Below, one piece after another: positions 14,511-34,286 of a stretch of 64,000 bases of DNA. The notes beneath the pieces are model-generated. The model was given only the letters and a program-made list of their open reading frames with translations, did no database searches and was not told where the DNA came from. Location: the NCBI GenBank assembly GCA_049297775.1, contig JBAQUX010000025.1, positions 58,835 to 122,834 of the forward strand, written 5' to 3'. This DNA comes from Minisyncoccia bacterium (GTDB lineage Bacteria; Patescibacteriota; Minisyncoccia; Phycocordibacterales; UBA2100). Every line of letters begins with the position of its first letter. Positions within the stretch are counted from its first letter, which is position 1. The position numbers were made by a program, and so were the translations under genes.

Positions 14511-14520
14511 GTTTCGATAT

Positions 14521-17467: not shown

Positions 17468-17514
17468 TACATGTATAACAAACACCGCCATAGGGCGGTG
17501 TTTGTTATACATGT
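17468..17514. repeat. Perfect 20-bp-stem hairpin/palindrome (catgtataacaaacaccgcc-ata-gggcggtgtttgttatacatg)
   Basis: Seen directly in the sequence, between the stop of 17529..19715 and the start of 16013..17380. No adjacent U-tract. Confidence 0.6.
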
Positions 17515-17528
17515 ATAGGAACAACGAA

Positions 17529-19715
17529 CTAGTGCGTAAGCACGTAATACTTTACCGCAGCGAAGTAATTAGTACCGTATCCTGCAGGCATATTCAACTT
17601 AACATCGAAGTTAGATTTAGACTTGAGTCCCGCATCGATACCTACAGTTATCCAGTGGAGTCGTGCAGCCTCTTCATTAGGGAAACTAAGGCTGTTCAAT
17701 GTCTGGTAGTCATACCAATTGAACACTTTCGGGTCGACCAAGTATTTATATGTGTCATAGAGCGCGTCTATGCTTGCTTGCACTTGTGCGAGTGTACCGA
17801 ATACGTAGTGAGACCTAAATTTGTAATCTCCCGCTGGTGCATTGCCTGGATATCGATATATGGACTGAATAGTAGTAAAACCATTTGAAGTCACAGATGC
17901 GAAATATGGAATGAGTCCAGTTAGGTCGTCAAACCTCTTGTCTGGTGAAAATATCGCCATCGCTTTCGTGCCATCAACTGAATGCGCAATAATCGGCTGA
18001 ACGGCAACGAATTTAGCATCCACAGTCGGATTTGTTGTGACGACGAGCGCTGTCAGCGCCTTAGTTCGCGGGTCATACACAGACAATTTTGGGAACTCTG
18101 TTCTCTTTACCGAGTTAAATGCTGGCAAGAAGCCGGAATCGTGGTATGTCTCGACAGTTCTCACGACCATGTCGGTAGTCAAAACCCCGGGCATACTCGT
18201 CGGCTTCGTAGATGTGCCAATATTTCCAATGGCGGCAGATTTGCCGAGCTTCACTGTGGACGTTGCTGTATTATTATTAAGAGTGAAATCTGGATTGTTC
18301 AGTCCATACGGTGCAACAAAGCACGTCGTCTTTCGCACTGGCGTACCCACATGTCCTCCAGTTGTCGGGTCATACGCATAGAAGTCCGTTGCAGCATTTG
18401 GGTTTACATAATACACAAGATCAGCGGTACTCACCATTCTATCGGCTGCAGATTTGTACCATATAGTTGGACTAGTAAGACCGCGGTTTGCACCATTTGC
18501 TATTACCACGTCAGCAACCGACCCTGTCTCGAGGGGGTTATTACAGTCATTGTAAAATGTCGGGTAGTCAGGCGTAGCCCCCACCATCGGAGTATTGAAG
18601 AAGAATGTCCCTTGTAGCGATCCGCCTCGTATATATTTAAGGTCAAGTGGCGGATCGTTCTGGACAAAGTTGTTTGAACCTCTCACAACCTGTGTAACTG
18701 CACCGCCATACGTTAATTTGTCAGTGGCTACAAACGTATCTCCATCTGACATATAATAACCATCATTTTCATATGTAGTTCCTAAATACGTCTTATTTGC
18801 AGAACCTGCTGGTATTGCTGGGTACACAGCTTCAGGAATATCCACAACAGGAAGCACAACAGTTACTGCTTGAGTCGCAGTAGCTGTACCGCCAGCTGTT
18901 TTAGTACAGGTCAATGTAAAGGTCTCGTTGTTCGTAATCATACTAGATACGACTGTCCCCGATATACCTGTTGCGAGTGTAGTCGATGCACCATTCTTAA
19001 CAGTACATGAACTCATTTGTGTTGAGCCCCATGTGAGGGTGGTTGTCTTACCCAATGCGACTGAAGTACTGGCTGCTGTAAGTGTCAGGGTTGGTACTGG
19101 AGAGGTGACGGTGATTGTAACGTTTTTTGTGATCGCTGATCCGGGTGCACCTGGTAACGGCTGACATACCAGTGAGAGCGTAGTCGTCGTGAGTGGCCCA
19201 TAGCTATATGCTGTTTGGTTAAGCGACGATAGGATCGTTGTTGCTCCATTTTTAAGTGTGCACGAGCTAGCATTAGTTGATGTCCATGTCAGTGATGTAT
19301 TAGTCCCAGACATGATTGTTGTAGGAGTTGCGGTAAATGTGGATGTTGGATTAGGTATTGCCGCATTAACAGTCACACCCACAGCTCCTGTGTCAGTCTC
19401 GTTACCATTATTCGGGTTATAACAATACACTGAATAATACGCATAGCCGGCTGCAGGCGTGTGAAATGAGTATCGATACGGGCCAGATGCATACACAGGA
19501 ATATCCAAGCCACTACCATAATACCGAGCGAGGCACACATTCTTAACCGCGTCTGGTTGCCAATTAATCTGTATCTGAGTTCCTTCCGTGACCGTAGTCC
19601 CCTGCACTGGGTACACTCCTATTGTTCCAGCTAATGAAATTCCAGGCAGCACAAGTAAAAAACTAATAAAGAAATAAATAATGCTGCGACGCGAGTAAAT
19701 ATAATTGGTAATCAT
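17529..19715 (-). CDS. Large secreted cell-surface protein with tandem Ig-like (~75-aa, Cys-containing) repeats
   Basis: N-terminal TM/signal (IIYFFISFLLVLPGISLAG). Two tandem repeats (...SLTWTSTNASSCTLKNGATT... and ...TLTWGSTQMSSCTVKNGASTT...). T/S/G-rich. Confidence 0.6.
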   Translation of the reverse strand: MITNYIYSRRSIIYFFISFLLVLPGISLAGTIGVYPVQGTTVTEGTQIQINWQPDAVKNVCLARYYGSGLDIPVYASGPYRYSFHTPAAGYAYYSVYCYNPNNGNETDTGAVGVTVNAAIPNPTSTFTATPTTIMSGTNTSLTWTSTNASSCTLKNGATTILSSLNQTAYSYGPLTTTTLSLVCQPLPGAPGSAITKNVTITVTSPVPTLTLTAASTSVALGKTTTLTWGSTQMSSCTVKNGASTTLATGISGTVVSSMITNNETFTLTCTKTAGGTATATQAVTVVLPVVDIPEAVYPAIPAGSANKTYLGTTYENDGYYMSDGDTFVATDKLTYGGAVTQVVRGSNNFVQNDPPLDLKYIRGGSLQGTFFFNTPMVGATPDYPTFYNDCNNPLETGSVADVVIANGANRGLTSPTIWYKSAADRMVSTADLVYYVNPNAATDFYAYDPTTGGHVGTPVRKTTCFVAPYGLNNPDFTLNNNTATSTVKLGKSAAIGNIGTSTKPTSMPGVLTTDMVVRTVETYHDSGFLPAFNSVKRTEFPKLSVYDPRTKALTALVVTTNPTVDAKFVAVQPIIAHSVDGTKAMAIFSPDKRFDDLTGLIPYFASVTSNGFTTIQSIYRYPGNAPAGDYKFRSHYVFGTLAQVQASIDALYDTYKYLVDPKVFNWYDYQTLNSLSFPNEEAARLHWITVGIDAGLKSKSNFDVKLNMPAGYGTNYFAAVKYYVLTH

Positions 19716-19734
19716 ATACTACAAAGCATACATC

Positions 19735-19777
19735 ATCACTACTAAAAGGCATAAGTACTTGTCGGTATAATTTTTTG
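19735..19777. promoter_or_regulatory. Conserved ~43-bp upstream element, copy B (tcacact-aaaaggcaTaagtacttgtcggtataattttttg), 5' of the surface-protein gene
   Basis: Near-identical to 34322..34364 upstream of the RHS gene. Contains the palindrome AAGTACTT and a TATAAT on the plus strand. Confidence 0.5.
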
Positions 19778-19904
19778 CAGAAGATACCAAGAATTTCACA
19801 GCTGCACTCAAGTCAATGTTGCGATGCATACAGGCACCCGCGCTGAAACGCGTCACGCATTGATTTATTGCAATGAAACTAATACCTGATCCTGGTTATT
19901 CTGT

Positions 19905-20035
19905 CGCGTATTTCCTTACCACCATTTTATTTTTTCTGGCATTTCGCCATCTTCTCTTGAAAGATTAGCGAAAGGTAGATGCATTTTTTCGACGCACCTA
20001 CATTTGGTATATTTACTTTCATGCCAGGGTAATCC
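19905..20035 (-). pseudogene. Decayed remnant of an immunity gene paralogous to imm3 (23160..23765)
   Basis: Minus-strand translation gives ...MKVNIPNVGASKK... and, in another frame, ...FANLSREDGEMPEKIKWW*. These resemble the imm3 N-terminus (MSIGASKLL) and C-terminus (FAKVSNSDGIMPSKIKWW*). The shared sequence ccaccattttatttt is present at both loci. Confidence 0.45.
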
Positions 20036-20058
20036 GATTCAAAATAGTAACTAACTTA

Positions 20059-20541
20059 CTAATTCAGTAACGTCCCCAACTCTGCATCTACAATTATCAC
20101 ACCTTTTTTCTTCAGCCTAAGCACAACATCTTTCAAAGACGATCTTGAAAAATACATCTCCTGAAGGACAATTTCATTTCCATTCTTTGCTTGAATTACA
20201 AGACTGTCACTACCATACGATATTACATGTGTCGGACCGTATGTCACACTACTTACTTCACTGAACTGCATTCTTCGCATAATCATGAGGTACTTTCTTT
20301 CATATATACCTGTTTCATCTACCCCGACTCCATCTAACTTTAAAATTAGATGGAGTAGTCCAAAAATTAACATGCACAACGCAGAGATAACAGCGCGAAA
20401 TTCCATTGTGTTTGGCTCAAGAAATAACATTGGAATTATAATGAACCCAATAATTGGTAAATATTGTACTGTTTTGTAGTAGTTGTAATACATATTTTTA
20501 TTACTTATTTTTTGAAGGTGGTGGAACAACAATAACTCCAC
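20059..20541 (-). CDS. Putative immunity protein for orphan toxin cassette CT1 (membrane protein)
   Basis: Lies immediately 3' of cassette CT1, with a hydrophobic TM segment (LPIIGFIIIPMLFL...ISALCMLIFGLLHLIL). The probable start is the MYYNYYK Met (~20493), which avoids overlap. Confidence 0.5.
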   Translation of the reverse strand: MELLLFHHLQKISNKNMYYNYYKTVQYLPIIGFIIIPMLFLEPNTMEFRAVISALCMLIFGLLHLILKLDGVGVDETGIYERKYLMIMRRMQFSEVSSVTYGPTHVISYGSDSLVIQAKNGNEIVLQEMYFSRSSLKDVVLRLKKKGVIIVDAELGTLLN

Positions 20542-21533
20542 TCCATGTAGATACAGCGCCGTTCGGAAGCGTCCATAATTGTGTATATGGATTTTGAATT
20601 TGTTGTTGCTGATGAGTATTTCCAGGTGAAGAAAGTATATTTTGCGTTACGACCGAAGTTGACGATCCAAATATTTCTCCTGTCATTTTTTCAAGAACCT
20701 TCTTAGAGGCGGGGACCTTGCCAACGCCCCAACTAAAGAAACCACCAGTCACATAAGTTGCACTTCCTGATAATGCAGCTTTTTTTATGTCTGGGTATTC
20801 TCCATTTAAAGCGTCCTGGGCAGCAGAGCCGAAAGCAGATGACACAGCTGTTGCTACTTTATATGAACCAAGGAACGCCATTGTAGTTCCACCAATTACA
20901 TCTCCGGCAACATATGACATCGGAGATGAAAGATTGTCTGTAAATGCATTTTCTCTTCCATTTGCGCGATTGTTGATTACGTCCCCTGTGTATGTTGCGT
21001 AGCTGTTTACTCCAGCCCCTATGATAAAGAGGCATGGGATGAGCGCCGGACCTGCACATGTTCCATTTGGATCAGTATACTTAATTGGATTATTTTTTGC
21101 GTACGAATACAGATTTTGCTGCTGAGGATCAAGGAGCAACTGTTGCGAAATATTATTAATCCCCAGTGTCTGAGCCACCGGATCCTGACTCACAAACTGC
21201 CCCGTACTTGGATTGTAATACCGTGCGTTCAAATATGAAAGCTGTGCAGTATCATCGTAGAGTTCTCCTATGTACTTGCGCTGGGTATCAAATGAGGTGG
21301 CTTTGGTGTTTTGTCTGATGTCACCGTAGGGATAATAATCAATCGTTTGCACCTCATTCGGTATGAGTGGTCCTGGTGGGACTACCGCTACGGTACGGGT
21401 TTGGGTGACTGATTGTCCGCCACTGTCGGTTGCCGTGTAGGTACGCGTGTAGGTACCTTGTACTGCAGTGTTTACGGTTCCAGTCACTGTTGGAGTAACC
21501 GTGCCGTCTTCTGTGTCTGTGGCGGTTGCGCTG
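20501..21533 (-). CDS. Orphan RHS C-terminal toxin cassette CT1 (silent; no ATG; in-frame homology to the RHS core end)
   Basis: 21178..21533 is near-identical to 25611..25960 of the main RHS gene (...TVTGTVNTAVQGTYTRTYTATDSGG...YYPYGDIRQ...ARYYNPSTGQFVSQDPV). Then comes a divergent NLYSYAKNNPIKYTDPNGT demarcation and a Gly-rich hydrophobic C-terminal domain. The frame opens after a TAA with no ATG; the track's 'M' is a GTG. Confidence 0.7.
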
Positions 21534-21642
21534 GGGTTGGTGAGGGGTTAATGAGAAAGAACTATCGACCGTGAGTGAATTATATCATTTGATAAACAAG
21601 GTTGAGAATAGGTTTTCTATTGGAAATATGATGACTGTCAGA

Positions 21643-22098
21643 TTATTTATTTTTACCGTCAAAAAAGGACTGCCATTTTAAAAGCCATGTATCCATATTA
21701 TCGTAACTATCCCGATAAAGCTTAAATTGCTTCACCGCTTCTGTATCTCTATTTAAAATTAAATTTGTGTAAAAACCATTTTTCGCAACCTCTGGGTACC
21801 CTAGAAACATCTTAACAAAGGGGTATATCTCTTCCAGGTTGTCGACAAGATGAATCTTCCAGTCTGGCGGTATCGAATCATCAACAACGTCGAAGCAATA
21901 TGCATACTCAAAGGTAAGTCTGTCCAACAAATATTGAATACCACTATCAAAAAAACCAACGGCAAGCACATTATATTCTTTGCCGAGCTCAACGCCAGCA
22001 AACATTTCTTCAGGGATGTGACTTCGCCCATTTCTGTCAAATTCAGAAGTATATTTCGCAATTTCGTCCCGATTCTTTCTAGCAAGTCTAACGCGCAT
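21643..22098 (-). CDS. Putative immunity protein for orphan cassette CT2
   Basis: 151-aa acidic cytoplasmic-type protein immediately 3' of CT2 (the usual toxin/immunity arrangement). Confidence 0.45.
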   Translation of the reverse strand: MRVRLARKNRDEIAKYTSEFDRNGRSHIPEEMFAGVELGKEYNVLAVGFFDSGIQYLLDRLTFEYAYCFDVVDDSIPPDWKIHLVDNLEEIYPFVKMFLGYPEVAKNGFYTNLILNRDTEAVKQFKLYRDSYDNMDTWLLKWQSFFDGKNK

Positions 22099-22107
22099 AA
22101 TTGTAAT

Positions 22108-23048
22108 TTAATTATTAATAAATTTAAAATCATCAACTTTAAATATCCCATTCACATTTAGGCCATTGAAATGAATCTCGACTTTTCCACCACCACTCCC
22201 TGAATATTCACGAGAATATGAATACTTATCCCACCCCTGCCACCTACCATCTTTCAACTCACTCATGATTTTTTTTCCTGACATCGGGTTTGACATGACC
22301 TCCTCCATAGAAAGCTTTTCTTCAAGACTATTGGCGACAGTTCTTCCGGTAGAACCCAAACCAGCAAACTCAGTCTTTGCCCCCATAGTTGCATTTTTAA
22401 TAGTCTTTCCATTTGTCGCAGAAAACCTTCCCGCTGAGCTCGACCCCTTGCCGGCCACCCCTGTAGCTAACCCAACCGCAGTATCACCAAGAATACCTCC
22501 CAAAATCGCATCTTGTTCAGCATCAGTACCGAAGAAGAAATTCTGTGTGGTTTGACTTCCTTGACCAGTTCCAATACTTTGCACACTATTAGATATCTGT
22601 CGTCCAACTGCTTGCATCGTACTGGATGCACCGTTGTTGTACACATTTGATATGAGAGAAAGAGTGCCTGCGCCTGTGCCCCAAATAGATCCTCCAGTAT
22701 TTTTTGCGGTACCTGAGATGGTAAACAACCCCGACGGATCCTTACTCCCTATCGGATTGTTCCCTGCATACGAGTAGCTGTTGAGACTTTGTGGATTCGC
22801 AAGGTTTTGTGATTGCCACCAAAACACCGGATCCTCACTCACAAACTGCCCCGTGCTTGGATTGTAATACCGTGCGTTCAAATATGAAAGCTGTGCAGTA
22901 TCATCGTAGTATTCTCCTATGTACTTACGCTGTATATCAAATGAGGTGGCTTTGGTGTTTTGTCTGATGTCGCCGTAGGGATAATAATCAATCGTTTGCA
23001 CCTCATTCGGTATAAGTGGTCCTGGTGGGACTACCGCTACGGTACGGG
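22108..23048 (-). CDS. Orphan RHS C-terminal toxin cassette CT2 (silent)
   Basis: 22826..23048 is homologous to the main gene's core end (VVPPGPLIPNEVQTIDYYPYGD...SEDPV). It then has SYSYAGNNPIGSKDPSGL (PxxxxDPxGL-type demarcation) and a unique Gly/Ser-rich C-terminus. No ATG (GTG at NEV). Confidence 0.7.
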
Positions 23049-23159
23049 TTTATCATAGTTAATTTGAAAGAACATTACGGACTTACATCTTCGACTTGAA
23101 GGCCGTAGGTATAATTTCTTATATACGAATCAGCAACGTTGTGACTATCGTATATTTTC

Positions 23160-23765
23160 CTACCACCATTTTATTTTGCTTGGCATTATCCCGTCCGAAT
23201 TAGAAACCTTAGCAAAGGTTAATTTCATTTTCTCAGAAATGAGGTCATCAATCATTCTATGTGTAGAAGATGCATATACACCGCATGGTTCATTTTTCAC
23301 TACAAGCAGTTTTCCATTTTCATCTACATATCTCGGAGCCTTGCCATTTTCATACGGCACCTCAATGAAACAGTGCTGGGAAAGCAAGTCGTCTTTTGTT
23401 AATTCTTTATGTTTGATTGTCTTGAAATATCCATCGAGCCAACCTCTTCGATTGCAAATCTCAGGGTCAATAAGTAAATTATTCTTATCAAGAACCGGAT
23501 CTGATTCAATTTCTTTTGTAATATGATTATATATGTACAAAAGAAAATCTTCACCCTTTGACATAGGACCTTGCCAATCCTCTCCCAAAATAACTCTTCC
23601 GTAAATATACCCGAGATACTTATTCTTAAATACAAAAATATCACCCACTTGCGGCTTCTTTCTGCTCACACCTAAAAAATCCATATTTATATCGTATTTT
23701 CTCATTTTATTTTCCTTTAGTTTTCTTTGCTTCCTGTATAATAACTTGCTGGCCCCAATTGACAA
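23160..23765 (-). CDS. Putative immunity protein for orphan cassette CT3
   Basis: Immediately 3' of CT3. The likely start is MRKYDINMDF (~23705). The C-terminus ...MPSKIKWW is shared with the remnant at 19905..20035. Confidence 0.45.
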   Translation of the reverse strand: MSIGASKLLYRKQRKLKENKMRKYDINMDFLGVSRKKPQVGDIFVFKNKYLGYIYGRVILGEDWQGPMSKGEDFLLYIYNHITKEIESDPVLDKNNLLIDPEICNRRGWLDGYFKTIKHKELTKDDLLSQHCFIEVPYENGKAPRYVDENGKLLVVKNEPCGVYASSTHRMIDDLISEKMKLTFAKVSNSDGIMPSKIKWW

Positions 23766-24587
23766 CTTCTTGATATATTGGGTTTTTGAATGAGATACTG
23801 CTTATTAAATTTTGATAGGCACCTCCTCCAGCAGTAATAAAAGCCTCTTCTACGGCGCGTGCCTGGTTGCGAGTATCGAAATCAGTAAATTTTTGCAATC
23901 TATCGAATCTTCCTCCATGCTGAAATTGTCTTTTAGCAACATCTTTCGCAATACCAACATACCTTTCGACACCAGCAATTAATCCTTTGTAGACAGATGC
24001 AGGTTCGCCTTTCATTAAGAATTCAGCAGCCTCCTTTGAAACTTGAATCCCTCTTACTGTGACAGTATCCAAACTTTTTTCGGCTACCTTTTTTTCCGTA
24101 CCTCCAGTCATAAAACCAGCTACAAATAATGCATTTTCAGCATTTTGCGTAGGAGACTGTTGATATATATTTGAACCAACGGGCTCTCCACTTTCAAAGT
24201 CTGGCATGAGTAACCCGCAGGCAACAGCCATTGCAACCGTTGAACACCGACCACTCGAATCTTTCCTCCCTATCGGATTCCCTCCAGCATAGCCATAACT
24301 ATTCTGTGCTTGTGGCTGTTGCACTGCTTGTGCACCGTCTTTAGTAAGTCCAAGTTCCCAAAACACCGGATCCTGACTCACAAACTGCCCCGTGCTTGGA
24401 TTGTAATACCGTGCATTCAAATATGAAAGCTGCGCAGTATCATCGTAGAGTTCTCCTATGTACTTACGCTGTATATCAAATGAGGTGGCATTGGTGTTTT
24501 GTCTGATGTCGCCGTAGGGATAATAATCAATCGTCTGCACCTCATTCGGTATGAGTGGTCCTGGTGGGACTACCGCTACGGTACGGG
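23707..24587 (-). CDS. Orphan RHS C-terminal toxin cassette CT3 (silent)
   Basis: 24369..24587 is homologous to the main core end. It has a QNSYGYAGGNPIGRKDSSGR demarcation and a unique ~200-aa C-terminal domain. An in-frame stop lies upstream with no ATG. Confidence 0.7.
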
Positions 24588-24665
24588 TTTGTCATAGTGA
24601 ATTTGAAAGAACATAACGGACTTACATCTTCGACTTGAAGGCCGGTAGGTACTTATGACTAAATT

Positions 24666-24932
24666 TTAAATAATTAAAATTTTCCAAAAGCCGTAGAGGG
24701 AAAGGCTGACAGATGCAACACCTATTACAAGCCATTGAATGCCTAATGAGTATCTTGTGTATGCGAGCCTCCATTTCGGCAAGCTTAAATATGATTCATT
24801 AACTGAATTTTCTTTTACGGATTCGATATTATTTATATAATATTTTTTTGACCATAGCGTACTGAAACCTATGTAACAAAAATATACACCAATTAAAAGG
24901 AGGGCGAGAGTCATGTATACGGTTGAAGACAT
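24666..24932 (-). CDS. Small 2-TM membrane protein, putative cognate immunity protein of the full-length RHS toxin
   Basis: 88 aa, two hydrophobic helices, starting 30 nt after the RHS stop on the same strand. Confidence 0.5.
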   Translation of the reverse strand: MSSTVYMTLALLLIGVYFCYIGFSTLWSKKYYINNIESVKENSVNESYLSLPKWRLAYTRYSLGIQWLVIGVASVSLSLYGFWKILII

Positions 24933-24962
24933 GTTGTAATATAAATTAGTTTCTAAATAATC

Positions 24963-27900
24963 TTATTTCTTCTGCTTCTGCACGTTCAGCATACCGCTTG
25001 AATTACGCTGATAACTAGCTCCGTCCTGATTCACAGTTTCGGGCAAACTGCTGGTATTCTGCTTTGCATTATTTTGTGAGCTGTTTTGCTGCTTTTTATC
25101 ACGATCATCATTGTAAAATTTAGTTAATTGAGGGCCCATGTAGTGATCCATAACATCTAAGATTGTTGGACCGATTTCAAGGATAAGTTTCTCGCCAATT
25201 TCTTTTGTGGCACTCGTCGCACCTCTGAACATGAGATCAATTCCGAGAGTTATGCTTGTATCCTTTTTTTGCTGCTGAGTAAAAAAGTTTGGGTAATCGT
25301 AATATACTGTTTTTAGGTCGTAAAGATTTACTAATGTTTGGGCGCCTGAGTAGACAGCAATGATTGGCAAAATTGGTATTGCCTCGCCACTTCTATCAAA
25401 ATTTTTAATTGGATTACCAACACCATATGCATATGCATTAAGAGCTTGCGGATTAGTGAGGAACTTTTGAAGGGTTGCGACGTCATCGTCGTTATTATTT
25501 CCTGCTGTTAATTTTTTTTGTATTGTTGGTACGTTTTCAAATAGCCTACTACTGGATTGAATTCTGTTTAATGACTCTGTAAGAGTAGGTGTGCCTAGAG
25601 ACAACACTACCGGATCCTGACTCACAAACTGCCCCGTGCTTGGATTGTAATACCGTGCATTCAAATATGAAAGCTGCGCAGTATCATCGTAGAGTTCTCC
25701 TATGTACTTACGCTGTATATCAAATGAGGTGGCTTTGGTGTTTTGTCTGATGTCGCCGTAGGGATAATAATCAATCGTCTGCACCTCATTCGGTATGAGT
25801 GGTCCTGGTGGGACTACCGCTACGGTACGGGTTTGGGTGACTGATTGTCCACCACTGTCGGTTGCGGTGTAGGTACGCGTGTAGGTACCTTGTACCGCAG
25901 TGTTTACCGTTCCAGTTACTGTTGGAGTAACGGTGCCGTCTTCTGTGTCTGTGGCGGTAGCACCACTGTCTACATAGGTTGAACCTTGTGAGACGAGTGT
26001 TGGGTTGGTGCCACTCAGCGTGAGTACTGGTGGTGTGTTGGTTTGTGGTGCGAAGATACCCGGGATTTGGGATTGGGTCAGCCCAGTGCCGGCAAGAATC
26101 TTTACTTCATCGAGTGTTCCTTTGTGATATGACCATACACCTCCCGTGTTTGATTTGCCAAGGTAGGCAGTGGTGCCGGTGAATGAAAGGTTGGTTACTT
26201 GGCTTGGTGTTGAAGATGACTGGAGGACGTTGTCGAAGTAGAGCTCGATGGTGTTGCCACGTCTGAGACACACCATGTCGTGCCAATTATTGTCATACAC
26301 AGGAACGGTTGACGTATTGAGTGTTGTGCCACCTACGTGACAATTACCCTGCATATTTGAGTTTACATACATGTAGATATTGCTGTAGTTGTTTACATCG
26401 GTGCCCTCAAAGAAGAGCGGGCTACTTGCGTAGTTGAGTGGCCACACTGTTTTGAACCGTACTGCAACAGTAAAGTCTGAAGTTGCAGGACTATATGGCG
26501 TGAAGGCAAGATTGTCTGAGGTGCCATTCAAGTACGCTGCGGTATCTGCAGTACCTTCCTTTCCTGCTACTGATGTGTACCCATTTGAAGTAAGTGGATA
26601 CGTACTCGTGTTTATACTATTCTCTAATTTACTTGTACTTCCTTGTGCTCCCGTGTACTTCCACTGTACGAGCGGTGTAGGAATAGTGTCGGCTGGGTTT
26701 GGAGCACGAACGATTACAGTGCGTATTTTGGTGTCGGTACTTCCACCACTATCTGTAACGCTATATGTCTTAACGTACGTACCTGTCGTGGCGGTGTTCA
26801 CCGCACCTGTTGTTACGATACTTTGTGTCAGTGTGCCATCTTCTGTGTCTATTGCACTTGCTCCTTGCTCCGTGTATGTCGCATTCTGTGCAACGATTAC
26901 GGTAGACTCACCGATTACAGATACTTTCGGTGGCCTATTGTATTGCACAATGTCTGACGTGATTGCGGATGATGAACCAAGAGTATCTGTATGCAGATAG
27001 TACGGTGTTACCGTAGTCCCAACTGTTTCTATTGTGGCTACTACTGTATCCCCTGCAAATATGTGCTTTGTCTTTTTACCTGTCGAATCTTTGTTATAGA
27101 ATTTGTTTGGATATTTTGTAGTCAGTGTGCCACTTGTGTGACTCACGCGTTGCTTGCTTGTGTCATAACCGTATGTTGTTGTTACTCCACCTTTTGTAAC
27201 ACTCGCGAGCGTATTGTTGTAATTCCACACATACGTACGAACGCCATCACTCACGACATTTCCGTTATTGTCATACGTGTAGGAACTTGCACCTATGGTA
27301 GTTACTGCATGTGGGTTTGCATATCCCGTACCTGCATAGCTATATGCACCGGTATCAGACTTATTGGTGATACTACCCAGTGCATCGTACGCAAATGTAT
27401 GTGCATAGTTTGTTCCCACGAGGGCGTTTGATGCTGTCGCACTCGTTAAGCGGTATAGGTCGTCATAACCCAACGCAAGGTTCTTCTTTGTATTGGTATC
27501 AGAAGCATCACCTATTGCCGTAATGTTACCTACGGCATCATATGCGTATGAGAGATACTGGTATGCCTTTGACGTGTAGGTTGTGAATGTTCCCGTAGTG
27601 CTCCAGTCAGTCTCAGAATTTCCGGTTGTCCAGAATTTAATGCGCCAATAGTATTTGGTGCCATTAAACGTGAGCGGTGCACCTGCGTACACTATGTCGC
27701 TGGTACGCGCCCCAAACGATGTCGCAGAAAGCGATGTACCTGCGGCGCCCGAATCCCACAGTATGCCAGTCGAGAAATCTGCACTCGTTGCAACTTGCAT
27801 ACGATATTTATGTGCGACTGTTCCTGATGCACCGAGATTAAATATACCTGAGAAAACTGGCGCACCACATTTTAGTTCTACTGGATTTAACGCTCCATCT

Positions 27901-30900
27901 TGTGCGGTTAGGCACCCTGAGTACAGATAACTTTGCACAACCTGTGGCGTGGTTACTACAAAATAATCTGAGCCGTCACTCCATGGACCTTGTGTACCTC
28001 CTGTATCCCAGAATCGTATTCTCCACAGATATTTAGTGCCGTTTAACTGCAACGCAGTGCCTCCGTACGTAATGTTTGGCGTCCTGTCACCTTGGTTTAA
28101 GAGAGTTGGCAGTGCGGATTTCTGTGAATCCCACAATGGTGTTGCCCAGTTTCCACCTTCAGGGATAACTTGCACTGCGTAATGCGCACCGCTGTCTACC
28201 AGGTCGGGGTCATTAAATGTTGCCGTAAATTTTGGAGTACCGGTGGTTACTGTTGTTGGATTACTTAAGCTTTCAACTTTTAAATCTGTTGCCGTTGGCG
28301 GAATTGTTGGAAGTGAGTATGTTACTTCTAGGTATGGGTCAAAATCAGTGCCCGTATACTCTGACATTCTGAATGCATACGAATGAAATCCGGAAGTTGG
28401 AGGTACGTTGTCTTTATCGTATCCCGAGCGTAAACCAATTTTCGTCCAACCGGTAAGATTAATTGAACCGATACCAGTCGCATTAAGTGCAAAAGTTTTC
28501 CAATCTGGCGATGTAAATGTTCCATTTGCAGAATTTACACGAGCACTTAACTCAGTTGTGCCAGACTGATCAAAGTCATTCAGTACGAGCGCAGTTGGTG
28601 ACGCCTGTGTTGTAGGCACAACTACAAGATACGCATTTGGGTCCCATGCGTAGTTTACATATGTCGAGTACAGCTTTAAATTTGCACCTGTTATATTCGC
28701 TGTATCAGGAAGCGCATCTGTATTAAAGGGAACAAACAAGCGCTCGATAGTATCTGAATATTGTGCATTTGAAGCAGTTGGACCGCAACTTGACGTGCAC
28801 GGATATGCGCCGACACTTGCATCGTGTGAGTCACTCCATGAATTAGTTGGAGAATAGTTTCCTACTGCCCCATCAGCAATGTCAGAAGAGTAACTCAAGA
28901 TTGCGTCTGTAGTTACCGGGTACACTGCCTTTACTAACCATTCTTTTGGAATATGTTTTGTTAAAAGATATCCTCCGGGAACTTTTGTATACTCAACTGT
29001 TATTTGAAGCTTCTTATTTTCTGAATCCCAAATTTTTGGTGCGAATATATATACAGAATCTTCACCTTTCAGGAGCCGTGCATTTGCAGTAGTACTCATT
29101 GTGTCTTTTATAGATGTGTCACCAACCAAAAGCTCTACATCATCCTGCACGCGCAACATAAACGATACATCGTATGTTGCATCTGCATCATTTAGATTTT
29201 TTAATGCATCTGCATTTTGAATTACTACGTCTTTTGCGACGAAATTATTGTCTGCGCGAAGCACTATATCTATCCCGTCACCATACGCATTTTTCTCTCC
29301 AATTTCTCGCTCTTCCTTTTCAGTACGACTTCCCATCTTCCCGTTTTTTTCTCGTATTTGAGCACTCTTTGTTGCATTTGAATTTCTAGACTTCTCGTAT
29401 TGAGACTCAATTGCAACCGCAAGCTTTCCTACGGTAAAGGTTGCGAGTTCTACACTTATGTCTGTCTTAATATCGAGAGCATATCTTGCATCTCGAACCT
29501 TATACCCTTCTGCATCTTTGCGAATGCGTGTATCTATTGGCTGTAATTTCCCTTCAGCATCTTTGTAATGCACTGGTGCAGAAAATAATCGTGTTACTCG
29601 TGTTTCGTTTCCTTGTTCATCTCTTCCAACACGAATCGTGTAGCTATTCTCAGTTCTTGCTTTTTCAATCTCGGTGTCGTCCTTTGTATGAACTAGTGAA
29701 AGTAATTTTGGAAAATCTTCCGTATTCGAAGGCTTTTCTACAACCACTTCAGGCTTTTTTTCTACAACATCCGTAACTATTTCTTTCGGAGTGTCGGAAG
29801 TGTTTTGTTCATCCGGAATCGTAGGCGTTTTGATAGAGTCAGACACTTCCTCTGGTTCTACTGCAATCTCAGGAAGTGGACTTTGTGGTGCCGTAATAGC
29901 CTTAATTTCTTCTTGTATCTGCACTTCTTGCACCTCTGGAGAAGCAACCACTTCCTCAGCAAGCGGAACAACGAGAGACTGTTCTGCTGGCACGATTGGT
30001 ATTTCAGCAACAGGTGTAACATCCTCAGCTGGCGGATCAATTGTAGAAATATTTTTCAAGCGATACATCTCATTTGAGTCGTAGGTGTGGTATGTCCACG
30101 TATTGTTGGCGAGTTGCTTCAAGGTAAACTGACCGTGCGGACCATAATCATAATTTGAGACCACATCAACCCATGTACCACCCGATTCTTTTCGTTGGAT
30201 TTTCTCAATCCTTCCCGTCTGGTTGTAGGTATATTTTACTTGTGCACTGTCTGGCGTAGTAATCGTAGATATATCTCCTGTTCGAGTGTAGTCAAAGTTT
30301 GTCGTGAATGTTTCTCCTCCGATAACTCTTTGCTCTTCTGCGACGTCACCACGAACCGTGTATGTATATGTAGACGTTGTTGTACCGCGCGTAGCTGTAC
30401 TTAACCTGCCTTTGCCATAGGTTCCTATATCATACGTATAGCTTGCTTCTATTCCTGAAACATTTGTTGCGTCTTCTGAAGTTAGTCTATCGAGTGCATC
30501 GTACGCATAGTTTACGACTGTTCCTGACGGTTGAGTTTCTTGAGTTTTATTGCCCTGTGCATCGTACACAAAATTCCAATTGCCAAAAGTACTGTCTGCA
30601 GGTGCATGCAAGTCTTCTGCACTTGTTCTGCGGTTTGCTTTATCATACGTGAAGGCACGAACATTTCCTCCGGCATCTTGTATAGTACTCAGATTATTTT
30701 TTGTATCGTATGTGTATGTGGTGACATTTGGTGTTGAGCCAACAAATTCTGTCACTTTGTATACACTGCCACGCGCATCTGTTTCATACATTTTTTGTTT
30801 ACCTTTGGCATCAACTATCGTCTTTTTCCAGTCCGTGTAGCTTGTTGCTGTCGTTCCAAGTGCATTTACTGAGCTCACGACTCTATTTAACGCATCGTAT

Positions 30901-33900
30901 ACAAATGAAGTTGCGAGTGCGGAGTTTGTACTTGGGCTCGTTTTACTCCCGCCAATACTGGCGTATGGCAATGATTGTGAGGTCACGGTACCGTCTCTCC
31001 CGTATGTTGCGTCAGCTACAGAATACTTTCCTCCTTCGTTACTCACGCGCTTTTGAATTACCCTGCCAAGTCCATCGGCATACGTGTACGAATCCTGTGA
31101 AAGGGATCCCGTAATGTAGGTCCGTTCATACACACTGTTTGCGTTACGCGTATCCGTATAGGTGAGTGTTTTTGAAGTTATCAGTGATGCCGGTGCACTA
31201 TTGTCACTTGCTCGCACTGATACTACACGCCCCAAGGCATCGTAGGTGGTTTCAACGGAATATGTATTTGCATCAGTTACCAGTTTTGGCTTACCTATGA
31301 TTTGATTGTACTGATACGTAGTTGCGTGCGTCAGCGGATTTGTACTGGTTGCCGGATACAAGTTTTGCGCATCGTACGTAAGCGTTGTTGTGTAGTTTCT
31401 TGGGTTGATAATCGAACTTACCAGTCCATACGAGTTGAACGTGCGCTGTGTTGAAGCATACGTGGCTCCTGAGAGGAGTTGTTCGGTTTTCGTTTCGTTT
31501 CCGATGGTCACTGTGCCTAGTGGCTGAGCATCATAGTAACGACGGGCCTCTGATTGAATGACTCCTAACTGATCTTTAAGAAGCTGGCGTGATACTTTGT
31601 TCAAAATTTTGCCAGCGGTATCTGTTGCATACGTGTACTCTGTTACGCGCTTATCTGTACCAGTATCAACATACGTGCCATCTGGCGAGGCGTTAACTTC
31701 TCCCCACTCTGACTCAGAAAAAATGTTACCGTTTGTGGTGTTATATGCACGAGTTTTTACTGTGTCTTTGTGCGATGCATCACCCTCATATATGAGCGTA
31801 GCAACTTGCGTGTTTTGTACAAAAAACTGATTCCCTGCTACTGCAGCAATCCAGCGAAGTACTTCCAAAGAATACAGAGACCCATTGCTTGCATACCGTG
31901 CGATTCTGTACGGCTTACCAATTTTTGAAGGGTGGTCTAACACTTCACCATTTGTAGTATCTGTAGTGTTTCCTTGGTGGTAATACGTTTTTGTTTTGTT
32001 ACCTGCAGAATCTGTAACGGTGATTATGTTAAACCCAGCGAATTGCTTATCATTATATGCATTAAAGTACTGCGATATACCTTCATAAAAATATGTTTTT
32101 GTATCAAGGTATCCAGAGCCATCGCCAATAGTAATAGTATCTACCGTAGTTACAGGATATGGTGAGCCAGTATTAACTAGATTTCCACTTCCATCTTTAT
32201 AGGCAAGCGAACTTTTGTACGTATACGACACACTCCCACCTTGCGGAAGTGTTACTGAGGTAAGCAAGTCTGCTTTTTTACCTGTATTCAAATATACTTT
32301 ATTTGTCAAAACACCACCTGGAAATATTGCACCGACCAAATCTGGCAGTGAGTCGCCGTTTATATCTAAGATTCTCCAACCCCCATCTTTTTGCCCAGTT
32401 ACTCCGTTCCAAGATGAAAACACCACATCTGAGGGAAGATTGTACGTACCCGTATTGAAAGTTGTACCGGTATTAGTGAATAATGATTGAACGTTTGTTC
32501 CACCAGCATTAGTTGCTGATTCAATAATATCTGGCAAACCATCTGCGTTTATATCAGCAATTCGTGAGCCGACTCTTTCTGACCCGTCTATACTAAAGGG
32601 ATAAGCTCCAGGTACGGTAATTGCAGATGTCAGAAAACCTTTAGCTGAGTTAAGTTTGAGTGCTTTTACCGTCACATTGTTTACGACAGACCACTCTATT
32701 GAGTCCAGTAGGCCGTCACCGTTAAAATCTCCAAACCGTCCATCATTGGTGTACGGCGCGCCATCTGTCCAGGTGACTGAATCTTTCCAGCCGAGAGTTA
32801 CTCCATTACCAAAATACGTAGACATAATATCTGCGCGACCGTCTCCATTCCAATCTGCAAATGATACATTGTTAGGGCCAGAATATAGACTACTAAATCC
32901 AAAACCGTCTGGAATGCTATACGCAGAATTCCATACATAATCTGTAGGACCTTTCACAAAAACTTTTTTATACTGTTTATTCTCAGACGGCGTCTGATTG
33001 TAATCATCATCATCGTGGGCCTCGACAAGGTCGTCCATTCCATCACCATTTACATCTCCGACGCGCAGGCCGAAGTCGTTGTGATTCAGCGTGTCCTCAG
33101 CTAAAAAGCAAGCATCCGTAGGAACAAGTGCTGTGGTAATTGTATTCCATGCAGTACCAGTATTAAGCGCAGTTTGCTTGTTGTAGCATTGAGCTGGAGT
33201 TGGCCCGCTTGCTTTAATTATATCTGGCAACCCATCCCCATTTACCTCAGCAAAGCGAACACCATTATCAGGTGTAAATGCTGTATCAATGAGAGGAATT
33301 GAAATTGACCAATTTGGTGCCACTTGCCATCCTACTGTCGGCTGTTGGTAGGCAAGTTGCGTTGCAGGTAGTGTGACAACATTACCTTGTTCATCTCGTC
33401 CACTCTCAACCACAGTACTCAAAACGGAACGAACACCATTTACACCGGTGCCATAGCCGAGGTCATATTTTCTAACCCAGGTGCCACTTTTCTTTGCGAT
33501 TACTTGTTTTATACGATAGTTTGACGTAACTGCAAAAGCGGTTTTGTATGATGGTACTGTGTCTACACGTGCTTCACGAATAAAATTTACTTCAAAAATA
33601 CCATCTGTGCTTCCTGAACCTGTATAGAAAATAGAATCTGGATATATTTGTCCAGCATTTTTAAAATATGTATATCGCGCAAAGTTATTATTTGTATCTC
33701 TCACTTCGTCAAGCATCCACTGATACACATTTGCAGTATTCGCGATGTCATCTTGTCGCGATGCGGCAGTAGAACCTAATTTGAATACGGTCCCGTCCTT
33801 TCCTGTAATAGTCCACGCTGTGCCTGTATACGCATATGTATTGTACGCACCAGAGTCGTATTTAGCTCTATAGATAGCAGGTGAGCCTGCAGTAATCAGA

Positions 33901-34286
33901 ACCAGCTCTCCATCAAGAGAAGAAGTAAAGGTGTTTTGTGTATAGAGATTATTTACGCCCTCTTTATTTAGTCTTGAGATTGCAGGGATACCCACTGACC
34001 ATCCGTATCCGTATAAGCCAGTATTATCACTTGTATTACTATTGTATGAAAGTGAGAGCGACGGTTCGATACCATTTCTTCCTGGAGGAGTTACGAACGG
34101 AATGTCATATGTCGCAGACCCAGTATTTCCTTCTGGGCGAATTTGAATTGTTTTAGATTTTGTTTCAAGAAGACTTACTGGAACGTTGTATCCGTTATCC
34201 TCTGCTCGAGCTACGTTTGGGAATGCGCACGTCTGTAAAAATATGGTGAGAACAACAATTACAGCGACAGCTCTTTTTGTGCGCAT
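24963..34286 (-). CDS. Giant (3107 aa) secreted RHS/YD-repeat polymorphic toxin with a TcB/SpvB-like N-terminus
   Basis: Signal peptide. SpvB/TcdB-N-like region (IEPSLSLSYNSNTSDNTGLYGYGWSVGIPAISRL). Multiple FG-GAP/VCBS-like repeats (DVNGDGMDDLV, DWNGDGRADI, DFNGDGLLDS, DINADGLPDII, DINGDSLPDLV). First YD-repeat block (YTYD..GN, YDALGR...). Pro/Glu-rich linker. Two fn3-like modules (KYLWRIRFWDTGG / KYYWRIKFWTTGN). Second YD block ending YYLHTDTLGSS. Two Ig-like modules (TYxxTDSGG). A LamG/ConA-like module (DNNWHDMVCLRRGNTIELYFDNVLQ...LDEVKIL). A terminal RHS core end (YYPYGDIRQ...RYYNPSTGQFVSQDPV + AYAYGVGNPIKNFDRSGE). A unique ~150-aa C-terminal domain. Confidence 0.9.
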   Translation of the reverse strand: MRTKRAVAVIVVLTIFLQTCAFPNVARAEDNGYNVPVSLLETKSKTIQIRPEGNTGSATYDIPFVTPPGRNGIEPSLSLSYNSNTSDNTGLYGYGWSVGIPAISRLNKEGVNNLYTQNTFTSSLDGELVLITAGSPAIYRAKYDSGAYNTYAYTGTAWTITGKDGTVFKLGSTAASRQDDIANTANVYQWMLDEVRDTNNNFARYTYFKNAGQIYPDSIFYTGSGSTDGIFEVNFIREARVDTVPSYKTAFAVTSNYRIKQVIAKKSGTWVRKYDLGYGTGVNGVRSVLSTVVESGRDEQGNVVTLPATQLAYQQPTVGWQVAPNWSISIPLIDTAFTPDNGVRFAEVNGDGLPDIIKASGPTPAQCYNKQTALNTGTAWNTITTALVPTDACFLAEDTLNHNDFGLRVGDVNGDGMDDLVEAHDDDDYNQTPSENKQYKKVFVKGPTDYVWNSAYSIPDGFGFSSLYSGPNNVSFADWNGDGRADIMSTYFGNGVTLGWKDSVTWTDGAPYTNDGRFGDFNGDGLLDSIEWSVVNNVTVKALKLNSAKGFLTSAITVPGAYPFSIDGSERVGSRIADINADGLPDIIESATNAGGTNVQSLFTNTGTTFNTGTYNLPSDVVFSSWNGVTGQKDGGWRILDINGDSLPDLVGAIFPGGVLTNKVYLNTGKKADLLTSVTLPQGGSVSYTYKSSLAYKDGSGNLVNTGSPYPVTTVDTITIGDGSGYLDTKTYFYEGISQYFNAYNDKQFAGFNIITVTDSAGNKTKTYYHQGNTTDTTNGEVLDHPSKIGKPYRIARYASNGSLYSLEVLRWIAAVAGNQFFVQNTQVATLIYEGDASHKDTVKTRAYNTTNGNIFSESEWGEVNASPDGTYVDTGTDKRVTEYTYATDTAGKILNKVSRQLLKDQLGVIQSEARRYYDAQPLGTVTIGNETKTEQLLSGATYASTQRTFNSYGLVSSIINPRNYTTTLTYDAQNLYPATSTNPLTHATTYQYNQIIGKPKLVTDANTYSVETTYDALGRVVSVRASDNSAPASLITSKTLTYTDTRNANSVYERTYITGSLSQDSYTYADGLGRVIQKRVSNEGGKYSVADATYGRDGTVTSQSLPYASIGGSKTSPSTNSALATSFVYDALNRVVSSVNALGTTATSYTDWKKTIVDAKGKQKMYETDARGSVYKVTEFVGSTPNVTTYTYDTKNNLSTIQDAGGNVRAFTYDKANRRTSAEDLHAPADSTFGNWNFVYDAQGNKTQETQPSGTVVNYAYDALDRLTSEDATNVSGIEASYTYDIGTYGKGRLSTATRGTTTSTYTYTVRGDVAEEQRVIGGETFTTNFDYTRTGDISTITTPDSAQVKYTYNQTGRIEKIQRKESGGTWVDVVSNYDYGPHGQFTLKQLANNTWTYHTYDSNEMYRLKNISTIDPPAEDVTPVAEIPIVPAEQSLVVPLAEEVVASPEVQEVQIQEEIKAITAPQSPLPEIAVEPEEVSDSIKTPTIPDEQNTSDTPKEIVTDVVEKKPEVVVEKPSNTEDFPKLLSLVHTKDDTEIEKARTENSYTIRVGRDEQGNETRVTRLFSAPVHYKDAEGKLQPIDTRIRKDAEGYKVRDARYALDIKTDISVELATFTVGKLAVAIESQYEKSRNSNATKSAQIREKNGKMGSRTEKEEREIGEKNAYGDGIDIVLRADNNFVAKDVVIQNADALKNLNDADATYDVSFMLRVQDDVELLVGDTSIKDTMSTTANARLLKGEDSVYIFAPKIWDSENKKLQITVEYTKVPGGYLLTKHIPKEWLVKAVYPVTTDAILSYSSDIADGAVGNYSPTNSWSDSHDASVGAYPCTSSCGPTASNAQYSDTIERLFVPFNTDALPDTANITGANLKLYSTYVNYAWDPNAYLVVVPTTQASPTALVLNDFDQSGTTELSARVNSANGTFTSPDWKTFALNATGIGSINLTGWTKIGLRSGYDKDNVPPTSGFHSYAFRMSEYTGTDFDPYLEVTYSLPTIPPTATDLKVESLSNPTTVTTGTPKFTATFNDPDLVDSGAHYAVQVIPEGGNWATPLWDSQKSALPTLLNQGDRTPNITYGGTALQLNGTKYLWRIRFWDTGGTQGPWSDGSDYFVVTTPQVVQSYLYSGCLTAQDGALNPVELKCGAPVFSGIFNLGASGTVAHKYRMQVATSADFSTGILWDSGAAGTSLSATSFGARTSDIVYAGAPLTFNGTKYYWRIKFWTTGNSETDWSTTGTFTTYTSKAYQYLSYAYDAVGNITAIGDASDTNTKKNLALGYDDLYRLTSATASNALVGTNYAHTFAYDALGSITNKSDTGAYSYAGTGYANPHAVTTIGASSYTYDNNGNVVSDGVRTYVWNYNNTLASVTKGGVTTTYGYDTSKQRVSHTSGTLTTKYPNKFYNKDSTGKKTKHIFAGDTVVATIETVGTTVTPYYLHTDTLGSSSAITSDIVQYNRPPKVSVIGESTVIVAQNATYTEQGASAIDTEDGTLTQSIVTTGAVNTATTGTYVKTYSVTDSGGSTDTKIRTVIVRAPNPADTIPTPLVQWKYTGAQGSTSKLENSINTSTYPLTSNGYTSVAGKEGTADTAAYLNGTSDNLAFTPYSPATSDFTVAVRFKTVWPLNYASSPLFFEGTDVNNYSNIYMYVNSNMQGNCHVGGTTLNTSTVPVYDNNWHDMVCLRRGNTIELYFDNVLQSSSTPSQVTNLSFTGTTAYLGKSNTGGVWSYHKGTLDEVKILAGTGLTQSQIPGIFAPQTNTPPVLTLSGTNPTLVSQGSTYVDSGATATDTEDGTVTPTVTGTVNTAVQGTYTRTYTATDSGGQSVTQTRTVAVVPPGPLIPNEVQTIDYYPYGDIRQNTKATSFDIQRKYIGELYDDTAQLSYLNARYYNPSTGQFVSQDPVVLSLGTPTLTESLNRIQSSSRLFENVPTIQKKLTAGNNNDDDVATLQKFLTNPQALNAYAYGVGNPIKNFDRSGEAIPILPIIAVYSGAQTLVNLYDLKTVYYDYPNFFTQQQKKDTSITLGIDLMFRGATSATKEIGEKLILEIGPTILDVMDHYMGPQLTKFYNDDRDKKQQNSSQNNAKQNTSSLPETVNQDGASYQRNSSGMLNVQKQKK

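Follow-up and report, generated by a model that had tools for sequence, protein, structure and literature searches.

Layout of the locus and its four core-end repeats

We analysed a 64-kb stretch of DNA (the window; all coordinates are window positions) from a metagenome-assembled genome (MAG) of a Minisyncoccia bacterium (contig JBAQUX010000025.1 of GCA_049297775.1), in which positions 20059-34286 carry a locus built around a large RHS gene. Its class, Minisyncoccia, falls within the Minisyncoccota, the phylum name validly published for the Patescibacteria or candidate phyla radiation (CPR). The list of open reading frames (ORFs) and their translations place every gene of the locus on the minus strand. 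The main rhs gene, which encodes 3107 amino acids (aa), is followed by an 88-aa ORF that begins 30 nt past its stop codon, and then by three cassettes, CT3, CT2 and CT1, each a C-terminal toxin frame with a small ORF behind it (imm3, imm2 and imm1; Table 1). The ATG of imm3 overlaps the stop codon of CT3. This order and strand, and the coordinates, are as the initial annotation of the DNA had given them. We are confident, short of certainty, that this is a chromosomal RHS polymorphic-toxin locus of the Patescibacteria, in which a delivery protein is accompanied by three swappable tip/immunity modules.

The cassettes are related to the main gene through the end of its RHS core. A repeat finder returned one four-copy direct-repeat family (21177-21476, 22826-23125, 24365-24664 and 25609-25908), and a tblastn search of the window with the core-end peptide recovered exactly four copies (E 1e-41 to 1e-43) and no further copy at E<2. 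When compared in register, the repeat of the main gene is 99.5% identical over 214 nt to that of CT3 (1 mismatch), 96.7% identical over 211 nt to that of CT2 (7 mismatches) and 95.8% identical over 336 nt to that of CT1 (14 mismatches); CT3 and CT2 are 95.9% identical to one another over 267 nt. The homology of the CT1 repeat extends to ~21532, inside the last Ig domain. The near-identical copies proposed at the outset are thereby confirmed at 95.8-99.5% over 211-336 nt, and the 355 bp proposed for CT1 agrees with the extent found. The four copies are direct repeats that share a reading frame, and all encode ...RTVAVVPPGPLIPNEVQTIDYYPYGDIRQ...RYYNPSTGQFVS(Q/E)DPV, which includes the IDYYPYGDIRQ region. 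Nucleotide identity ends immediately past DPV, and the demarcation motif NPxxxxDxxG, which had been noted in the translations, is present in all four linkers: GNPIKNFDRSGE in the main gene, GNPIGRKDSSGR in CT3, NNPIGSKDPSGL in CT2 and NNPIKYTDPNGT in CT1.

Past the motif region, the first ~50-70 aa after DPV, all-against-all BLASTP detected no similarity among the four C-terminal regions and none among the four downstream ORFs, as expected from the earlier description of unrelated tips followed by different small ORFs. A simple tandem duplication was rejected on the same result. Orphan modules are defined in the literature on Rhs systems (PMC4436062), and the present locus was compared with that definition. 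Homology of the cassettes to the main gene is confined to the last 214-336 nt of the core end, the region homologous to the full-length 3' end lies downstream and on the same strand, and tips and immunity genes differ from module to module. Judged from sequence, the locus has each of the features by which rhs orphan modules are recognised, and the classical orphan-tip organisation that had been assigned to it matches the published definition. The layout is well known in other bacteria and new for this lineage.

An assembler might have strung in tandem the alternative 3' ends of coexisting strains. The sequence comes from a MAG, repeats of 214-336 nt typically break or mis-join short-read assemblies, and one assembly does break there. 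However, independent contigs cross every junction at 100% with unique sequence on either side. In a second assembly of the same organism (GCA_049296875.1), contig L104 corresponds to window positions 25721..22908 at 100% and covers the main core end, the main tip, the 88-aa ORF, CT3, the Imm26-family gene imm3 and the CT2 repeat, and contig L002 corresponds to 23036..11643 at 99.99%, reaching from the CT2 repeat into the housekeeping genes beside the locus. Three Logan contigs of run SRR28011841, again at 100%, cross from CT3 to CT2 (L001), from CT2 to CT1 (L003) and from the main gene to CT3 (L105). The repeat copies also carry 1-14 diagnostic mismatches, and a sequence shared by the CT2 and CT3 junctions is missing from the main gene. 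We rejected an assembly artefact, which we hold to be extremely improbable, on the strength of the bridging contigs (L001, L002, L003, L104 and L105). The tandem array is genuine.

Table 1. Features of the RHS locus, in window positions
Feature	Position	Strand	Basis
Main rhs gene	24963..34286	-	3107-aa ORF; Pfam/NCBIfam domains
Core-end segment of main gene, repeated in cassettes: last Ig domain + IDYYPYGD...QDPV	25609..25964	-	Repeat families D1, D2; alignment; in-register identities
Deployed C-terminal region: 75-aa linker ending GNPIKNFDRSGE, then 139-aa tip	24966..25608	-	Translation
88-aa ORF, candidate immunity of deployed tip	24666..24932	-	Position only
CT3 5' boundary: 53-60 nt junction, in-frame TGA, core-end repeat	24365..24644	-	Alignment, tblastn
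CT3 orphan frame, 277 aa from internal GTG	23707..24540	-	Translation
CT3 tip, putative GIY-YIG/URI-type nuclease	23710-24069	-	Fold + family comparison
imm3, 181 aa, Imm26 family	23160..23705	-	Pfam Imm26
CT2 5' boundary: junction as in CT3, in-frame TGA TAA, core-end repeat	22826..23105	-	Alignment, tblastn
CT2 orphan frame, 297 aa	22108..23001	-	Translation
CT2 tip, ~85 aa, RelE/BECR-like fold	about 22111-22365	-	Recurrence in other toxins; fold comparison
imm2, 151 aa, candidate CT2 immunity	21643..22098	-	Homology to ORF after P0005
CT1 5' boundary: 336-355 nt repeat starting mid last Ig domain, in-frame TAA upstream	21177..21532	-	Alignment
CT1 orphan frame: partial Ig domain, core end, NNPIKYTDPNGT, ~185-aa tip	20501..21487	-	Rhs_assc_core
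imm1, 144 aa, candidate CT1 immunity	20059..20493	-	Homology to ORF in L100
Relic of Imm26-family gene 3' end	19916..19990	-	Repeat D3; translations VEKMHLPFANLSREDGEMPEKIKWW and SEKMKLTFAKVSNSDGIMPSKIKWW, each followed by stop

The main protein, the tips and their predicted immunity genes

The assignment of the main protein to the RHS family was upheld by its domain matches. On inspection, its N-terminus (MRTKRAVAVIVVLTIFLQTCAFPNVARA/ED, aa 1-28) resembles a Sec signal peptide. It is followed by SpvB at aa 53-~330 (PF03534, E 6e-18 to 1.2e-19) and by an FG-GAP/TcdB mid-N propeller at aa ~348-660 (PF13517, 1.8e-13; PF12256, 2.9e-06; FG-GAP_3 in Pfam). RHS/YD repeats occupy aa ~670-1450 and ~2240-2453 (PF05593 RHS_repeat, 1.5e-20, in five stretches; TIGR01643 YD_repeat_2x, 1.6e-16), and Rhs_assc_core (TIGR03696), which starts at aa 2840 of the main protein (6e-14), is also matched by CT3 (1.8e-15), CT2 (8.7e-19) and CT1 (3.1e-18). 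The main protein therefore has the head feature of an ABC-toxin BC subunit, SpvB and TcdB mid-N/FG-GAP joined to an RHS shell. No PAAR or type VI secretion system (T6SS) family was found among the Pfam matches of the main protein or of its neighbours, the flanks being housekeeping genes, and no TcA-type pore-forming partner among the scanned window ORFs of at least 150 aa, which are a part of the ORFs of the window.

The shell region is interrupted by large insertions. One of ~790 aa (aa ~1450-2240, roughly 27567-29936 on the minus strand) splits the RHS repeats and consists of a P/E-rich linker, a part without assignment and two Ig_Rha78A_N domains. The other lies at aa 2458-2824 (25815-26915, minus strand), comprises Bact_surface_Ig-like, Laminin_G_3 and again Bact_surface_Ig-like domains (Pfam), and separates the motifs 'YYLHTDTLGSSS' and 'IDYYPYGD' by ~385 aa; in the related short protein P0025 only ~17 aa lie between the equivalents of these motifs. 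The Ig and LamG insertions are probably surface-exposed, adhesin-like decorations of a TcB/TcC-type cage.

The CT3 frame is composed of the core end, the linker with GNPIGRKDSSGR, a hydrophobic pre-toxin segment and a putative GIY-YIG/URI-type tip. Its post-cleavage region was searched exhaustively with HMMER against 1.84 billion representatives, which gave 349 matches at E<=1e-3. In all 150 matches listed of these 349 the CT3-like region is C-terminal, in proteins of 86 to 3253 aa; the four longest tested are RHS-repeat proteins, and the RHS-repeat carriers measure 1417-3253 aa. The family alignment has the pattern VYxG...YVGIT...RR..QH...R..ARAIEQ...N, and most of its invariant positions, Y, G, R and E among them, are retained in CT3. 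Pfam GIY-YIG is matched weakly by 20 of 25 CT3 relatives, and CT3 itself falls below detection by this model. Fold comparison gave a GIY-YIG fold for the tip; a sequence search of the PDB with the family profiles of CT2 and CT3 gave no meaningful match. The downstream gene imm3 matches Pfam Imm26 (5.2e-11, 43.2 bits against a cutoff of 23.3), and an Imm26 gene also lies 3' of the homologous toxin P0025. Tox-URI1 toxins are paired with Imm26, and RHS repeats and TcdB/TcaC export are listed for them (Zhang et al. 2012, PMC3482391). CT3 resembles this system in its Y...YxG...R...RxxE...N pattern, its GIY-YIG fold and its Imm26 neighbour, and is placed at the level of GIY-YIG/URI as a putative relative of Tox-URI1. 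By family and by neighbourhood, imm3 is the predicted cognate immunity protein of the CT3 nuclease tip.

CT2 combines the core end and NNPIGSKDPSGL with a Gly/Ser-rich pre-toxin segment and a C-terminal tip of ~85 aa. This last portion (GLGSTGRTVAN...RW.GW.K...H...NG...VDDFKF) recurs at the C-termini of a Pedobacter RHS protein, a PT-HINT toxin and others, and the tip is a probable BECR/RelE-like RNase. The product of imm2 matches no Pfam family and is 31% identical (E 2e-15) to the ORF directly after P0005, the PT-HINT toxin that bears a CT2-type tip, which makes it a candidate for the cognate immunity protein of CT2. A gene of the Pfam WapI family lies behind P0003, a further homologue of the tip; a WapI relationship of imm2 was rejected (E 6.5).

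The CT1 tip is glycine-rich, hydrophobic and ~185 aa long. Its homologues P0290 and P0291 (39-44% identity) are orphan-like ORFs that retain the Rhs core-end motif, and each is followed by an ORF of 147-148 aa with two hydrophobic segments, as in imm1, which has a C-terminal domain in addition. imm1 is 30% identical (E 2e-16) to the ORF directly after a CT1-like toxin in L100, and in L098 an ORF of imm1-like layout follows P0291. These features point to a probable membrane-acting tip in CT1 and to imm1 as its candidate cognate immunity protein. Collectively, the family match and the homologous neighbours support the pairing of toxin and immunity gene that the initial annotation had drawn for the three cassettes (CT3/imm3, CT2/imm2 and CT1/imm1).

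The profile searches proposed along with that pairing succeeded in part. They identified imm3 as Imm26, and nothing usable was found in Pfam or NCBIfam for the tips, imm1, imm2 or the 88-aa ORF even at E<=10; weak DUF826 and OspI-like matches below the cutoffs were disregarded. One concatenated query of the four tips gave few matches, and much more was learned from the search with CT3 alone. For the deployed tip, the one carried by the main gene, no Pfam match was obtained even at E<=10, and its only match in the databases (P0289) is this gene as found in the sister assembly. The 88-aa ORF behind it has two hydrophobic segments and is found in both L104 and L105. It is adjacent to the tip as had been described, and on position only it is a candidate immunity protein of the deployed tip. 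A membrane-related action of that tip is a guess.

Expression, relatives and turnover of the cassettes

The cassettes had been described as silent. In CT2 and CT3 the first homologous codon is directly preceded by an in-frame TGA (TGA TAA in CT2), in CT1 an in-frame TAA lies 30 nt before the homology begins, and no cassette in the window has an ATG or a signal peptide. We infer silence only from the missing start codon, the missing signal peptide and the in-frame stops at the border. To this extent the description holds, and the cassettes as they stand are predicted to be incapable of yielding an exported, caged toxin. It does not extend to expression from internal starts, which is known for Salmonella orphans (PMC7043789). 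The first possible start in a cassette is a GTG, at the Val of NEVQT in the main gene, and the recorded lengths of the coding sequences of CT1 (283 aa, NCBI-named P0288) and CT3 (277 aa; P0019, L104) fit this start. All three toxin frames are open, for 277-328 codons.

Signals around the cassettes were also inspected. No Shine-Dalgarno sequence precedes any of 12 inspected starts, housekeeping genes included (e.g. 34287-34326 and 42155-42194), so that its absence before the cassettes is uninformative and start calls cannot rely on it. Inside the array, the coding strand showed no terminator-like site. A promoter-like site, TTCTCA-18-TATAAT with an upstream TG (extended -10), lies at 21579-21608 on the minus strand, just 5' of the CT1 repeat. 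The region holds 24 promoter-like sites against 15.6 +/- 3.8 in shuffled sequence, a modest excess.

Relatives of the locus were sought in other genomes, and the comparison rests on a few short contigs (L004, L005 and L106), the first two of them from other samples. A first genome scan for close RHS relatives found none. Scans based on alignments gave 92 loci whose match is confined to the common Ig-like domain, and L095 was the only new contig with an Rhs core end. L004 holds the 3' end of a gene of the main type, 96.8% identical up to 'IDYYPYG' and continuing into a core end that has diverged and a tip of a fifth kind. Behind it come an ORF of the size of an immunity gene and P0001. The latter is an intact gene of 443 aa with its own signal peptide, an Ig domain and a core end 96.6% identical to that of the main gene. 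It is a mosaic, in which the linker is 94.6% identical to CT3, the pre-toxin segment lies within an 89%-identical match to CT2 and the tip is a new, ParB-like one. P0002 on L005 similarly joins a signal peptide, an Ig domain and a core end to a CT3-type linker and pre-toxin segment and to a Tox-REase-7 tip, and is followed by an immunity-sized ORF and the start of another gene with signal peptide and Ig domain. These mosaics indicate that recombination shuffles segments at several breakpoints and not at DPV alone.

Intact genes of this kind, in which the Ig domain is optional and which lack a YD shell, lie at 1605-2936 of L004, at 661-1902 and 2473-2661 of L005 and at 81-1178 of L106. Wherever the contig continues downstream the next gene is an immunity-sized ORF, which belongs to Imm26 in the case of P0025. 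As far as these sequences can be read, 'orphan' is a degenerate state in this lineage and not the sole state. We tentatively raise the idea, which we think rather doubtful, that the units downstream of the RHS gene derive from, and exchange tips with, autonomous Sec-secreted toxins without a shell, all forming one recombining arsenal of an epibiotic cell against host or rivals. In that case no YD cage would be needed for the Rhs plug and protease module to function, or at any rate for its secretion.

The cassettes may instead be expressed in place, either as toxin-antitoxin-like modules that act inside the cell from the internal GTG or as remnants or variants of such autonomous secreted toxins. 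The recorded lengths of CT1 and CT3 would fit, as would the intact relatives in which signal peptide, core end, tip and immunity gene follow one another (P0001, P0002, the next gene on L005 and P0025), the extended -10 site just 5' of CT1 and a genome in which a missing Shine-Dalgarno sequence says nothing. However, no cassette in the window has a signal peptide or an ATG, in-frame stops lie directly 5' of the homology, the sequence upstream of CT1 has no significant similarity to the signal-peptide region of the relatives, and the promoter-like matches exceed those in shuffled sequence only modestly. We consider expression in place unlikely. A decayed signal peptide of the P0001/P0002 type 5' of CT1 was dropped as a candidate, since no convincing DNA homology was found upstream of 21532.

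The borders of the cassettes bear on how they arrived. CT2 and CT3 share a non-coding junction of 53-60 nt (23053-23105 and 24592-24644, minus strand) that is 96% identical between them and abuts the 5' side of the core repeat. Neither the main gene nor CT1 has it, and it occurs neither elsewhere in the window nor in any of the loci retrieved for comparison. A structured RNA and a mobile-element end were rejected as explanations, as the folding energy equals that of shuffled sequence and the junction occurs nowhere else. We read the junction as a boundary that may have been copied whenever a cassette was inserted. From the proximal to the distal cassette the repeats become less like the main copy (identity CT3 > CT2 > CT1). 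Between the main and the CT1 repeat, 13 codon differences are synonymous and 2 nonsynonymous, an excess indicating that the CT1 repeat diverged under purifying selection as part of a translated, functional gene elsewhere and was then imported, and did not decay in place. The G+C content of the five 1-kb bins of the cassettes is 0.37 and 0.38 in two and 0.41-0.43 in the other three; most other bins of the window lie at 0.41-0.50.

A relic lies beyond imm1, at the distal end of the array. Its 25 codons (VEKMHLPFANLSREDGEMPEKIKWW and stop) are in frame, and 16 of 25 residues match the C-terminus of imm3, stop included. The relic is the remnant of a second Imm26-family gene, and it probably also marks a lost fourth, distal cassette beyond imm1.

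The array may also be an island of immunity, in which the cassettes are displaced former tips, selection keeps the immunity genes, and the toxin fragments decay and are seldom if ever redeployed. Each immunity ORF starts at an ATG of its own and the toxin frames have none, the Imm26 relic shows that a cassette can decay, the gradient of identity fits serial displacement, and orphan immunity genes are known to protect in this way (PMC10539506). Against this, all three toxin frames remain open over their full 277-328 codons, catalytic-type motifs are intact, with CT3 retaining its family's key residues, and repeats at 96-99.5% identity are still good substrates for recombination. We regard an immunity island as a serious possibility, though short of probable; it is compatible with the swapping of tips, and the two are not mutually exclusive.

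Proposed mechanism and relation to known systems

In the mechanism that we propose, the main protein would be exported by Sec, as its N-terminus suggests. SpvB, the FG-GAP propeller and the YD repeats would form a TcB/TcC-like cage that encapsulates the tip, and the Ig and LamG insertions would bind the target as adhesins. The tip is probably freed by the Rhs aspartyl-protease motifs QDPV ... NPxxxxDxxG / D(P/S/R)xG, a cleavage predicted from the motifs themselves, and the 88-aa membrane ORF, judged by its position, probably protects the producer. The three modules behind it would hold in reserve a GIY-YIG/URI nuclease with Imm26 (CT3), a RelE/BECR-like probable RNase with imm2 (CT2) and a probable membrane tip with imm1 (CT1). 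RecA-type recombination between the main core end and a cassette repeat (214-336 nt) would fuse the new tip in frame to the delivery protein, and a swap to CT3, CT2 or CT1 would delete 1244, 2783 or 4432 bp, respectively. Conversely, incoming DNA of the form core-CT-imm-junction-core could insert a new tip at the main core end and displace the old one downstream, and the junction shared by CT2 and CT3 is what such an insertion predicts. The immunity genes, with ATGs of their own, probably also guard against neighbours that deploy matching tips. The Rhs biology behind these steps is that reviewed in PMC4436062.

Several points weigh against this mechanism. The second motif of the presumed protease has the DPxG form only in CT2 (DPSGL) and CT1 (DPNGT); in the main gene (DRSGE) and CT3 (DSSGR) it is without the usual proline. 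In the main gene it also lies ~70 aa after DPV, and the canonical spacing in Rhs proteins is ~23 aa. No TcA, T6SS or PAAR delivery partner was found in the window. The deployed tip and the 88-aa ORF have no homologues, so that their roles are positional only. Among the assembled contigs, no recombinant junction joining the main core to CT1, CT2 or CT3 was observed, and a recombination between direct repeats goes in one direction only, with loss of the cassettes in between. Finally, the relatives have intact cassettes with signal peptides in place of start-less ones, which allows for another primary function.

The closest described parallel in layout is found in enterobacteria, where orphan rhs-CT/rhsI modules of E. 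coli, Salmonella, Dickeya and Serratia have been reviewed (PMC4436062, citing Koskiniemi 2014, PMC3967940). As in those, a full-length gene is followed on the same strand by 5'-truncated modules that have core homology, differing tips and immunity genes of their own, and divergence sets in near a PxxxxDPxGL-type motif. Here, however, a Sec-type N-terminus and a TcB-like SpvB/FG-GAP head replace PAAR and VgrG/T6SS, the host is a small-genome Patescibacterium, the shell has large insertions, and CT2 and CT3 have a common non-coding 5' junction. The homology also stops at DPV, before the demarcation motif, so that each cassette brings its own linker and cleavage motif.

In Gram-positive bacteria, WapA/WapI of Bacillus subtilis is a Sec-exported RHS toxin of contact-dependent inhibition (PMC4436062). 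The present protein is like WapA in having RHS repeats, a signal peptide (here by inspection), no dedicated secretion system and a variable tip with a downstream gene whose product is here predicted to neutralise it. The CT2-tip homologue P0003 even adjoins a WapI-family gene, although imm2 is not WapI. To our knowledge, WapA is without the SpvB/FG-GAP head. That head, with the YD shell, the Rhs core and a hypervariable C-terminus in a single polypeptide, resembles the TcB-TcC cocoon and teneurin-type YD shells, from which the locus differs in having no TcA-like partner among the scanned window ORFs and ~790 aa and ~385 aa inserted in the shell region. Unlike in TcB-TcC, the downstream immunity genes and orphan cassettes suggest an antibacterial (or anti-host-microbe) rather than an insecticidal role.

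The initial annotation had called such a locus notable in a CPR-like genome. The lineage does belong to the CPR, and in this respect the remark stands. RHS proteins as such are not new there, since a Saccharibacterium is already on record with a 2487-aa RHS toxin and an immunity gene (PMC6031116). For the N-terminal 700 aa, the best named homologues, at 33-40% identity, are likewise from MAGs of Paceibacterota, Gracilibacteria and the 'Patescibacteria group'. No account of orphan arrays in CPR was found in the literature searched.

The rest of the window consists of core genes, among them several aminoacyl-tRNA synthetases, DnaK/DnaJ, Tgt/QueA and YceG, and the locus is an island among housekeeping genes. 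Beside the array, a 728-aa ORF (17529-19715, minus strand; 707 aa at NCBI) has a hydrophobic N-terminus, repeats of 'TLTW.ST..SCT' and no Pfam match, and it may encode a surface protein. Farther away, the leucyl-tRNA synthetase ORF at 62059-63975 (minus strand), which runs toward the window end, carries a NUDIX domain (aa 76-196 of the ORF) between its editing and catalytic matches. An Rfam tRNA match at 48985-49083 (plus strand; 47.6 bits, full model, 99 nt) may contain an intron or a long insertion; ARAGORN found no tRNA in the window.

The locus leaves the general understanding of Rhs systems unchanged and supplies testable toxin-immunity pairs and predicted recombinant junctions. Within a single MAG it resolves a polymorphic-toxin locus with a deployed tip, three reserve tips (a predicted DNase, a probable RNase and a probable membrane toxin) and putative matching immunity genes. 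A life attached to other microbes is assumed for the Patescibacteria, and how they compete and handle their hosts is little understood. The locus suggests that a small genome devotes ~14 kb to the discrimination of kin and competitors, and that its toxin repertoire may evolve through the exchange of cassettes.

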